A DNA stretch of 64,000 nucleotides. Source: Escherichia coli. Its GTDB lineage: Bacteria; Pseudomonadota; Gammaproteobacteria; Enterobacterales; Enterobacteriaceae. Shown piece after piece: positions 26,238 to 29,899 of this stretch; the stretch's first letter is position 1, and every line of letters begins with the position of its first letter. Where the stretch lies: NCBI RefSeq assembly GCF_003334335.1, contig NZ_QOWQ01000005.1, one strand, 5' to 3'. A model generated the notes under the pieces. That model did no database searches, had not been told where the DNA came from, and worked only from the letters and a program-made list of their open reading frames with translations. The position numbers and the translations under genes were made by a program.

Positions 26238-26537
26238 GCGCGTGTGACCCGTCCTGAATAGCGTTCACATAGATCCTGCTGATATAAAACCCCCCTGTTT
26301 TCCTGTTTATTCATTGATCGAAATAAGAGCAAAAACATCCACCTGACGCTTAAATTAAGGTACTGCCTTAATTTTCTGCAGACAAAAGGCGTGACGATGG
26401 TCGAAAATGGCGCTTTCGTCAGCGGGGATAATCCGTTATTGAACAATTTATCCTCTGTCCATTTCACGATGAAAAAAATGTAGTTTTTTCAAGGTGAAGC
26501 GGTTTAAATTCGTTCTCAAATTACAGTCAGGACGCGT

Positions 26538-27908
26538 ATGTTGAATAATGCTATGAGCGTAGTGATCCTTGCCGCAGGCAAAGGCACGCGCATGTATTCC
26601 GATCTTCCGAAAGTGCTGCATACCCTTGCCGGGAAAGCGATGGTTCAGCATGTCATTGATGCTGCGAATGAATTAGGCGCAGCGCACGTTCACCTGGTGT
26701 ACGGTCACGGCGGCGATCTGCTAAAACAGGCGCTGAAAGACGACAACCTTAACTGGGTGCTTCAGGCAGAGCAGCTGGGTACGGGTCATGCAATGCAGCA
26801 GGCCGCACCTTTCTTTGCCGATGATGAAGACATTTTAATGCTCTACGGCGACGTGCCGCTGATCTCTGTCGAAACACTCCAGCGTCTGCGTGATGCTAAA
26901 CCGCAGGGTGGCATTGGTCTGCTGACGGTGAAACTGGATGATCCGACCGGTTATGGACGTATCACCCGTGAAAACGGCAAAGTTACCGGCATTGTTGAGC
27001 ACAAAGATGCCACCGACGAGCAGCGTCAGATTCAGGAGATCAACACCGGCATTCTGATTGCCAACGGCGCAGATATGAAACGCTGGCTGGCGAAGCTGAC
27101 CAACAATAATGCTCAGGGCGAATACTACATCACCGACATTATTGCGCTGGCGTATCAGGAAGGGCGTGAAATCGTCGCCGTTCATCCGCAACGTTTAAGC
27201 GAAGTAGAAGGCGTGAATAACCGCCTGCAACTCTCCCGTCTGGAGCGTGTTTATCAGTCCGAACAGGCTGAAAAACTGCTGTTAGCAGGCGTTATGCTGC
27301 GCGATCCAGCGCGTTTTGATCTGCGTGGTACGCTAACTCACGGGCGCGATGTTGAAATTGATACTAACGTTATCATCGAGGGCAACGTGACTCTCGGTCA
27401 TCGCGTGAAAATTGGCACCGGTTGCGTGATTAAAAACAGCGTGATTGGCGATGATTGCGAAATCAGTCCGTATACCGTTGTGGAAGATGCGAATCTGGCA
27501 GCGGCCTGTACCATTGGCCCGTTTGCCCGTTTGCGTCCTGGTGCTGAGTTGCTGGAAGGTGCTCACGTCGGTAACTTCGTTGAGATGAAAAAAGCGCGTC
27601 TGGGTAAAGGCTCGAAAGCTGGTCATCTGACTTACCTGGGCGATGCGGAAATTGGCGATAACGTTAACATCGGCGCGGGAACCATTACCTGCAACTACGA
27701 TGGTGCGAATAAATTTAAGACCATTATCGGCGACGATGTGTTTGTTGGTTCCGACACTCAGCTGGTGGCCCCGGTAACAGTAGGCAAAGGCGCGACCATT
27801 GCTGCGGGTACAACTGTGACGCGTAATGTCGGCGAAAATGCATTAGCTATCAGCCGTGTGCCGCAGACTCAGAAAGAAGGCTGGCGTCGTCCGGTAAAGA
27901 AAAAGTGA
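26538..27908 (+). CDS. glmU: bifunctional GlcNAc-1-phosphate uridyltransferase / GlcN-1-phosphate acetyltransferase
   Basis: ORF track 26538..27908, 456 aa; N-terminal nucleotidyltransferase motif LAAGKGTRM and C-terminal hexapeptide repeats. Confidence 0.97.
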
Positions 27909-28069
27909 TTCTGGCCGGCTAACCCGGTCACATGGGATGAGGAGATAACATAATCTCCCTCCCACAAGCAGTAACTATAAAAATAACCCCACTCTCTACA
28001 AGGCTCGGGGCGCCCGAAAAAACGGGCATACAGGTTGACCGACAACGATATAAATCGGAATCAAAAACT

Positions 28070-29899
28070 ATGTGTGGAATTGTTGGCGCGATCGCGCAAC
28101 GTGATGTAGCAGAAATCCTTCTTGAAGGTTTACGTCGTCTGGAATACCGCGGATATGACTCTGCCGGTCTGGCCGTTGTTGATGCAGAAGGTCATATGAC
28201 CCGCCTGCGTCGCCTCGGTAAAGTCCAGATGCTGGCACAGGCAGCGGAAGAACATCCTCTGCATGGCGGCACTGGTATTGCTCACACTCGCTGGGCGACC
28301 CACGGTGAACCTTCAGAAGTGAATGCGCATCCGCATGTTTCTGAACACATTGTGGTGGTGCATAACGGCATCATCGAAAACCATGAACCGCTGCGTGAAG
28401 AGCTAAAAGCGCGTGGCTATACCTTCGTTTCTGAAACCGACACCGAAGTGATTGCCCATCTGGTGAACTGGGAGCTGAAACAAGGCGGGACTCTGCGTGA
28501 GGCCGTTCTGCGTGCTATCCCGCAGCTGCGTGGTGCGTACGGTACAGTGATCATGGACTCCCGTCACCCGGATACCCTGCTGGCGGCACGTTCTGGTAGT
28601 CCGCTGGTGATTGGCCTGGGGATGGGCGAAAACTTTATCGCTTCTGACCAGCTGGCGCTGTTGCCGGTGACCCGTCGCTTTATCTTCCTTGAAGAGGGCG
28701 ATATTGCGGAAATCACTCGCCGTTCGGTAAACATCTTCGATAAAACTGGCGCGGAAGTAAAACGTCAGGATATCGAATCCAATCTGCAATATGACGCGGG
28801 CGATAAAGGCATTTACCGTCACTACATGCAGAAAGAGATCTACGAACAGCCGAACGCGATCAAAAACACCCTTACCGGACGCATCAGCCACGGTCAGGTT
28901 GATTTAAGCGAGCTGGGACCGAACGCCGACGAACTGCTGTCGAAGGTTGAGCATATTCAGATCCTCGCCTGTGGTACTTCTTATAACTCCGGTATGGTTT
29001 CCCGCTACTGGTTTGAATCGCTAGCAGGTATTCCGTGCGACGTCGAAATCGCCTCTGAATTCCGCTATCGCAAATCTGCCGTGCGTCGTAACAGCCTGAT
29101 GATCACCTTGTCACAGTCTGGCGAAACCGCGGATACCCTGGCTGGCCTGCGTCTGTCGAAAGAGCTGGGTTACCTTGGTTCACTGGCAATCTGTAACGTT
29201 CCGGGTTCTTCTCTGGTGCGCGAATCCGATCTGGCGCTAATGACCAACGCGGGTACAGAAATCGGCGTGGCATCCACTAAAGCATTCACCACTCAGTTAA
29301 CTGTGCTGTTGATGCTGGTGGCGAAGCTGTCTCGCCTGAAAGGTCTGGATGCCTCCATTGAACATGACATCGTGCATGGTCTGCAGGCGCTGCCGAGCCG
29401 TATTGAGCAGATGCTGTCTCAGGACAAACGCATTGAAGCGCTGGCAGAAGATTTCTCTGACAAACATCACGCGCTGTTCCTGGGCCGTGGCGATCAGTAC
29501 CCAATCGCGCTGGAAGGCGCATTGAAGTTGAAAGAGATCTCTTACATTCACGCTGAAGCCTACGCTGCTGGCGAACTGAAACACGGTCCGCTGGCGCTAA
29601 TTGATGCCGATATGCCGGTTATTGTTGTTGCACCGAACAACGAATTGCTGGAAAAACTGAAATCCAACATTGAAGAAGTTCGCGCGCGTGGCGGTCAGTT
29701 GTATGTCTTCGCCGATCAGGATGCGGGTTTTGTAAGTAGCGATAACATGCACATCATCGAGATGCCGCATGTGGAAGAGGTGATTGCACCGATCTTCTAC
29801 ACCGTTCCGCTGCAGCTGCTGGCTTACCATGTCGCGCTGATCAAAGGCACCGACGTTGACCAGCCGCGTAACCTGGCAAAATCGGTTACGGTTGAGTAA
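28070..29899 (+). CDS. glmS: glutamine-fructose-6-phosphate aminotransferase
   Basis: ORF track 28070..29899, 609 aa, MCGIVGAI N-terminal nucleophile, C-terminal SIS domains. Confidence 0.97.

Follow-up and report, generated by a model that had tools for sequence, protein, structure and literature searches.

The window, a stretch of 64,000 nucleotides of the Escherichia coli chromosome, carries the genes atpD, atpC, glmU, glmS and pstS, with the spacer described here between glmU and glmS. In the ORF list glmU (26538-27908) and glmS (28070-29899) are both transcribed from the plus strand, and the RefSeq annotation of the identical DNA agrees on this same-strand context. The ends of the two reading frames, at 27908 and 28070, bear out the glmU-glmS junction with a 161-bp spacer (27909-28069) on which the initial annotation was centered. 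The spacer is 100% identical to that of K-12 MG1655 over 221 aligned bases including flanks, and 5425 of 5426 complete E. coli genomes contain it, without an annotated feature; as RefSeq places no feature on the leader, it looks unannotated. Positions 28023-28069 are invariant in five divergent E. coli strains, and the variation of the spacer within the species is concentrated in the first stem-loop, plus the glmU stop codon (TGA or TAA). The parts of the spacer are listed in Table 1.

Table 1. Parts of the glmU-glmS spacer and its borders, with one row for hairpins in other genomes; positions refer to the window unless a locus is named.
Feature	Position	Strand	Description and basis
glmU stop codon	27906-27908	+	TGA; predicted RNase E processing site of the glmUS transcript; ORF end, identity to mapped end
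Stem-loop 1	27912-27930	+	7-bp stem, loop CUAAC, beginning 3 nt after the processed 5' end; part of the MFE fold of all constructs
Stem-loop 2	27933-27964	+	contains GGAGAT/ATCTCC, loop AACAUA; folding, conservation
(ARN)3 run	27967-27975	+	AGCAGUAAC; candidate Hfq distal-face contact, probably published ARN-1; regex scan
(ARN)3 run	27979-27987	+	AAAAAUAAC; candidate Hfq contact, probably published ARN-2; regex scan
Hairpin A	27987-28010	+	ACUCUCUACAAGGCUC; CCCC/GGGG stem, 16-nt loop; MFE helix 27987-27990/28007-28010
Hairpin B	28012-28027	+	GCCCG-AAAAAA-CGGGC; MFE helix
GlmZ target block 1	28030-28036	+	ACAGGUU, -40 to -34, with GlmZ 163-169; top scan match
GlmZ target block 2	28041-28048	+	GACAACGA, -29 to -22, with GlmZ 150-157; top scan match
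SD-sequestering hairpin	28035-28064	+	8 bp with 2-nt bulge, 28035-28038/28061-28064 and 28039-28042/28055-28058; folding
glmS SD core	28057-28059	+	GGA, 11-13 nt upstream of AUG
glmS start codon	28070-28072	+	ORF list; product begins MCGIVGA
Terminator-like hairpins after glmU in other genera	L025:1651-1700, L027:1651-1700, L028:1648-1700, L018:1651-1710, L030:1648-1700		

A few observations concern the wider window and the genome searches. Two further RNAs are recognized by Rfam, both on the minus strand: the enterobacterial sRNA STnc410 (188 bits, 26297-26454), between atpC and glmU and antiparallel to glmU, and AsdA (102 bits, 58519-58599), an antisense RNA of the dnaA mRNA. Of the 5426 complete E. 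coli genomes, one gives no match with the spacer as query and one gives none with glmZ, and each of these two queries also has one match on a plasmid-labelled record.

According to published work glmU and glmS are transcribed as one RNA, which RNase E would cut at the glmU stop codon to give a glmS mRNA that starts at about 27909; the initial annotation, in which glmS is co-transcribed with glmU and the transcript is then processed, agrees with this. The letters at the start of the spacer, AAAAAGTGA/TTCT, where the slash is the processed end, are identical to those of the mapped 5' end of processed glmS mRNA, AAAAAGUGA/UUCU (PMC1885654), as the comparison with the mapped RNase E site proposed in that annotation now establishes, and the processing site reported at -161 (PMC3439879) is position 27909 in the window. 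From the identity to the mapped end, RNase E cutting at the glmU stop codon is predicted for this strain. A minor mapped 5' end, CACAU/GGG (PMC1885654), falls at 27933/27934, at the base of stem-loop 2. The stop codon itself is polymorphic in E. coli, with TGA in the window and in two of five sampled strains and TAA in the other three; it is TAA in Escherichia albertii.

Transcription of glmS independently of glmU, from a promoter within the spacer, could draw on one sigma-70-like match (GTCACA-16-CATAAT, 27927-27954, 9 of 12 positions). However, a single match compares with 0.7 +/- 0.8 expected in shuffles, and no internal promoter is known, so that we regard this origin of the glmS mRNA as very unlikely.

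The two stem-loops at the 5' end of the spacer, and not the SD region, provide most of the folding signal of the whole spacer. Together (27909-27966) they fold at -25.7 kcal/mol (z -4.2); for the spacer extended by 31 nt the value is -59 kcal/mol (z -3.35), and the description of the spacer as structured is correct. Stem-loop 2 by itself (27933-27964) has an MFE of -14.8 kcal/mol (z -3.4), and one of 200 shuffles folds as well. The inverted repeat ggagat...atctcc, placed near 27940-27960 in the initial annotation, is exact and forms the core of stem-loop 2, with GGAGAT at 27941-27946, ATCTCC at 27953-27958 and six bases between them. In E. albertii the stem of stem-loop 1 is kept by compensatory changes (GGCCGG/CCGGUC to GAUCGG/CCGAUC). 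Stem-loop 2 is more than a chance structure, because it is kept in 13 of 30 Enterobacterales leaders, all of them from Enterobacteriaceae, and three of its ten pairs show compensatory double changes among these 13.

As the most obvious and most stable local structure of the spacer, conserved with compensatory changes within one family, stem-loop 2 invites the reading that the repeat is the regulatory structure itself, either occluding the glmS ribosome binding site or docking GlmZ, and the repeat had been presented as relevant to the freeing of that site. This reading is very improbable, and the role given to the repeat was the wrong one. Stem-loop 2 adjoins the RNase E site, lies about 95 nt upstream of the SD, with its end about 93 nt from it, and pairs with itself alone in every fold; the accessibility-weighted scan described below places no GlmZ site in it among its best sites, and the published GlmZ site is at -41 to -19 (PMC4152352). 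Moreover, stem-loop 2 is missing from 17 of the 30 Enterobacterales leaders, all of which keep the GlmZ site and the SD, including the minimal Photorhabdus spacers of 107-108 nt. We infer that stem-loops 1 and 2, including the repeat, have no role in GlmZ pairing.

The position of the two stem-loops directly 3' of the mapped cut is consistent with a role in processing, in which they would present the single-stranded AU-rich stop region to RNase E and afterwards protect the 5' end of the glmS mRNA and slow its decay. We give this role, which is compatible with a GlmZ-activated leader and is the one we would assign to the repeat, an even chance. Stem-loops at the very 5' end, with few unpaired bases before them, protect E. 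coli mRNAs such as that of ompA, and the cut glmS mRNA has only three unpaired bases before its first hairpin. A review suggests that the stem-loops may aid recognition by RNase E (PMC4152352), and in Salmonella a cluster of cDNAs from Hfq co-immunoprecipitation extends from the stop codon over the first 73 nt of the spacer (PMC2515195). On the other hand, polymorphism within the spacer is highest in stem-loop 1, and other families carry different hairpins at this place, often with a U tract, so that the function could concern the 3' end of the glmU RNA; no direct test of stem-loop 1 or 2 was found in the literature covered.

Several genera have a GC-rich hairpin followed by a U tract, resembling an intrinsic terminator, after the glmU stop codon (Acerihabitans, Brenneria, Edwardsiella, Yersinia and Providencia; Table 1). 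Stem-loops 1 and 2 occupy the corresponding place in E. coli, and there is no U tract.

Downstream of stem-loop 2 the spacer contains exactly two (ARN)3 runs, as found by a regex scan. Two (ARN)3 motifs are reported in the glmS leader (PMC3439879, PMC4152352), of which ARN-2 is essential for GlmZ/Hfq regulation (PMC3439879). The two runs probably correspond to the published numbering and would be the Hfq contacts of this leader, as judged from their sequence; at least two such runs are present in 17% of composition shuffles, and their count alone is not evidence. All 30 leaders keep an A-rich run immediately 5' of the CCCC stem.

Conservation within the spacer is highest, above even that of the GlmZ site, in hairpin A, which comes immediately after the second (ARN)3 run. 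Its core, CCCC-ACUCUCUACA(A)GGCUC-GGGG, is almost invariant across the leaders, and the motif UACA(A)GGCUCGGGG is present in 30 of 30 Enterobacterales leaders (read by eye in Photorhabdus) and in none of the other loci, with invariant columns in the alignment. In Arsenophonus the stem is CCCA/UGGG, with one compensated pair. Hairpin B varies in sequence, and by eye a hairpin with an A-rich loop is kept; its variants include CCGG-AAAA-CCGG, ACAGC-AAAA-GCUGU (Providencia) and GCGGCG-CACA-GCGCCG (Edwardsiella). Hairpins A and B together (27983-28028) fold at -15.5 kcal/mol (z -1.8). No role for hairpin A is described in the literature covered, which excepts published figures and the paywalled papers of 2007 and 2009. 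It could be an uncharacterised sequence-specific docking element, for a protein or a second RNA or as an obligatory part of the Hfq platform beside the second (ARN)3 run, a suggestion that we offer tentatively and consider rather doubtful.

Two other leads concerning this loop were dropped. In the Yersinia nurmii leader (L020, -95 to -85) the GlmZ variant L181 has a second predicted contact, CUCUACAGGCU with UGUCUGUAGAC, which lies in the invariant loop of hairpin A and scores about as well as the canonical site; we treat it as chance, as the GlmZ sequences of E. coli, Serratia and Acerihabitans have no such complementarity. A link between the UACAAGG loop and CsrA was given up as well, the CLIP-seq paper naming glmS only in its reference list.

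The pairing with GlmZ was predicted with the 207-nt K-12 GlmZ (Rfam RF00083, 218 bits) as query; GlmY does not pair with glmS and served as the natural negative control. When applied to the full-length RNAs, RNAduplex gave meaningless end-to-end duplexes in which GlmY scored "better" than GlmZ, and was replaced by a windowed scan in which the cost of opening both RNAs is added. The scan yields one dominant solution, glmS 28030-28036 and 28041-28048 with GlmZ 163-169 and 150-157, so that the complementarity to GlmZ anticipated in the initial annotation is indeed present. The hybrid energy is -19.2 kcal/mol and the total -8.9 kcal/mol, as compared with a best total of only -5.1 kcal/mol for GlmY in the same scan. 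The energy alone is not significant, with nine of 104 dinucleotide-shuffled GlmZ sequences reaching -8.9 kcal/mol or better. The register, in contrast, is exactly that of the published duplex: pairing was predicted for GlmZ 150-157 and 163-169 by Urban and Vogel in 2008 (PMC2267818), and the published site on glmS includes both blocks. In the predicted duplex G28034 (-36) pairs with C165 and C28043 (-27) with G155, and pairing has been proven by the compensatory mutants glmS C-27G/G-36C and GlmZ G155C/C165G (PMC2267818). The proposition that processed glmS mRNA needs GlmZ pairing to free its ribosome binding site is thus already published (PMC2267818), and the scan gives the same pairing. In the alignment of the 30 leaders CAGG is invariant and GACA nearly so.

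The window contains no Rfam match to GlmZ; in K-12 glmZ lies about 73 kb from the glmS leader. Of 5426 complete E. coli genomes, 5425 have glmZ with an identity of at least 99%, and this strain would be expected to carry it.

The folding of the SD region is far less distinctive. Positions 28028-28075 fold at -7.3 kcal/mol (z -1.0), and 27 of 200 shuffles are as good. The G and A of the SD are invariant in the 30 leaders, and G28057 is paired with a probability of at least 0.85 in all constructs. The 8-bp hairpin that sequesters the SD has a free energy of -3.9 kcal/mol and is the third-ranked structure, its CCGA/UCGG helix making up about 29% of the ensemble. It competes with the MFE conformer, which pairs 28046-28049 with 28054-28057, 28033-28036 with 28066-28069 and, in longer constructs, 28028-28032 with 28071-28075; in the dominant conformer G28058 and A28059 are mostly unpaired. 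We take the 8-bp form to be the published hairpin, because -36 and -27 stay unpaired in it, as the design of the mutants requires. In either conformer the start region pairs with the GlmZ target segment.

The initial annotation had expected a stable structure over the glmS SD along with complementarity to GlmZ. The complementarity is there, but the SD-occluding structure is weak overall (-3.9 to -7.3 kcal/mol) and, at -4.8 to -7.3 kcal/mol, no more stable than shuffled sequence (z about -1). Its weakness fits a review's remark that the SD may be accessible in some of the mRNA molecules (PMC4152352), and the reality of the structure rests on the published experiments. When the target site is held open in the model, the energy needed to open the stretch from the SD to +6 falls from 5.6 to 2.4 kcal/mol and that for -20 to +15 from 8.9 to 4.7 kcal/mol, a gain of 3.3-4.1 kcal/mol. 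No other upstream position is clearly better; the register 1 nt upstream gives 3.41 versus 3.25, and the median is about 0. The modeled opening energies fit the anti-antisense model, as follows. Segment 28030-28048 of the glmS mRNA, as published, would fold back on the SD and start region and limit translation. When glucosamine-6-phosphate is scarce, full-length GlmZ would accumulate, again according to published work, and with Hfq would pair through nucleotides 150-157 and 163-169 to 28041-28048 and 28030-28036. This pairing would displace the intramolecular structure and permit ribosome binding and, thereby, stabilisation of the mRNA.

The distribution of the leader was examined by scanning with the GlmU C-terminus, at one genome per species, and 80 loci were returned. 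Long spacers, of 107-448 nt, are found among these in the Enterobacterales only. In other lineages glmS mostly follows glmU by 1-18 nt, with spacings of 72 and 164 nt in two myxobacterial loci; in the remaining non-Enterobacterales loci glmS lies at a distance of about 1 kb or does not occur in the flank examined. The longest spacer, that of Yersinia thracica (L019:1651-1890), has 448 nt versus about 200 in other Yersinia, as a result of an insertion directly after the glmU stop codon. The start of this insertion (ATACCCGTCATACTTCAAGCTGC...) may resemble the ERIC/IRU repeat.

All 30 long leaders compared have a common core, composed of the A-rich run, hairpin A, hairpin B, the GlmZ site CAGGUY..GACA and the GGA of the SD. 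Between the GlmZ site and the SD, 27 of the 30 also have an extra hairpin that is stable and variable, for example AUGGC-AUAAC-GCCAU, and which E. coli, E. albertii and Kluyvera lack (window 28049-28054 versus, for example, L009:1790-1815). In most species with the extra hairpin, no release of the SD is predicted when the GlmZ site is opened. Overall, the gain at the start region on opening the target exceeds 1 kcal/mol in only 11 of 30 leaders, as compared with one of 30 for a control site, and the effect is clear in E. coli and E. albertii. MAFFT with RNAalifold on the 30 leaders, in whose alignment the variable hairpin is misaligned, identifies no conserved anti-SD helix, but just a mini-hairpin of 3 bp within the GlmZ site. 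Pairing against the SD has probably not been maintained throughout the order, and the inhibitory hairpin may be a peculiarity of E. coli and its near relatives.

GlmZ sequences for other taxa were collected with a DNA anchor pattern on metagenomes, which gave about 60 variants, most of them with hemY adjacent where the flank sufficed. Exact look-up of HemY assigned L181 to Yersinia, L101 and L184 to Serratia, L091 to Acerihabitans and L168 to Morganella; HemY homologues were of no use as a route to distant glmZ loci, returning only relatives of at least 87% identity. In pairs matched by genus or family (Yersinia, Acerihabitans, Rahnella/Serratia and Providencia/Morganella) the homologous block always holds the top site. 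Compensation is seen in the outer pairs of helix 1, which are A-U in E. coli, UU-AA in Yersinia, GU-AC in Acerihabitans and AAU-AUU in Rahnella/Serratia. Block 2 has no covariation: in Yersinia the glmS sequence GACAUC faces an unchanged GUUGUC, leaving a U-U mismatch. A compensatory change in GlmZ had been predicted for this Yersinia-type replacement of GACAAC by GACAUC, and was refuted, as the variants with this block keep GUUGUC or a close variant. Covariation between GlmZ and glmS is confined to the outer end of helix 1, and the GlmZ-glmS duplex, as predicted from these pairs, is conserved across the order.

We conclude that the spacer 27909-28069 is almost certainly the 5' leader of the processed glmS mRNA, activated by GlmZ; the case for this rests on published experiments and on conservation. 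It is the same element as the K-12 glmUS leader (Kalamorz 2007; Urban and Vogel 2008; Salim 2012; Gopel 2014), from which it has no difference, the two sharing their sequence, the letters of the processing site, the GlmZ register, the two (ARN)3 runs and the two 5' stem-loops. A GlmZ-activated glmS leader is known, textbook biology, to which the window adds nothing new. The leaders of other Enterobacterales (Yersinia, the Serratia group, Pantoea, Photorhabdus, Providencia and Edwardsiella) share the common core, with CAGGUC..GACA as the GlmZ site, and the predicted site is at the homologous place, but they differ in that they lack stem-loop 2 and have a longer helix 1, and in that most have the extra hairpin and most show no predicted anti-SD effect.

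The leader is reminiscent of that of rpoS, regulated by DsrA, RprA and ArcZ, where a segment likewise folds back on the ribosome binding site and is displaced by an Hfq-dependent sRNA, and where Hfq likewise needs an (ARN)x site further upstream (PMC2267818, PMC3439879). There is no relation in gene, sRNAs or sequence, however, and the rpoS leader is a primary 5' UTR rather than an intercistronic product of RNase E; the inhibitory hairpin of glmS is also much weaker in the model.

A second comparison is with the Gram-positive glmS ribozyme (RF00234), which lies upstream of the same gene and exerts the same physiological feedback by glucosamine-6-phosphate through the 5' leader, and one could suppose that the E. 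coli leader senses this metabolite itself. We see next to no chance of this. The ribozyme acts in cis, is activated by the metabolite, cleaves itself and lowers expression, whereas the control in E. coli acts in trans and is positive, and according to the literature E. coli has no such ribozyme (PMC4152352). No Rfam glmS ribozyme or riboswitch reaches the gathering threshold in the 64-kb window, and a permissive scan of 27850-28150 returns three noise matches only, with no match to RF00234 up to E = 10.

Glucosamine-6-phosphate, the product of GlmS, is the first committed precursor of peptidoglycan and lipopolysaccharide, and the GlmY/GlmZ/RapZ circuit acting on the leader keeps this metabolite balanced and gives enterobacteria intrinsic resistance to GlmS inhibitors (PMC4908143). 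The glmS leader serves as a reference both for activation by sRNAs and for differential expression inside one operon. What is gained here is a set of exact coordinates for every known part of an element that is not annotated in RefSeq; folding statistics alone would not have revealed its regulatory hairpin, and the invariant hairpin A is the only loose end worth a bench test.
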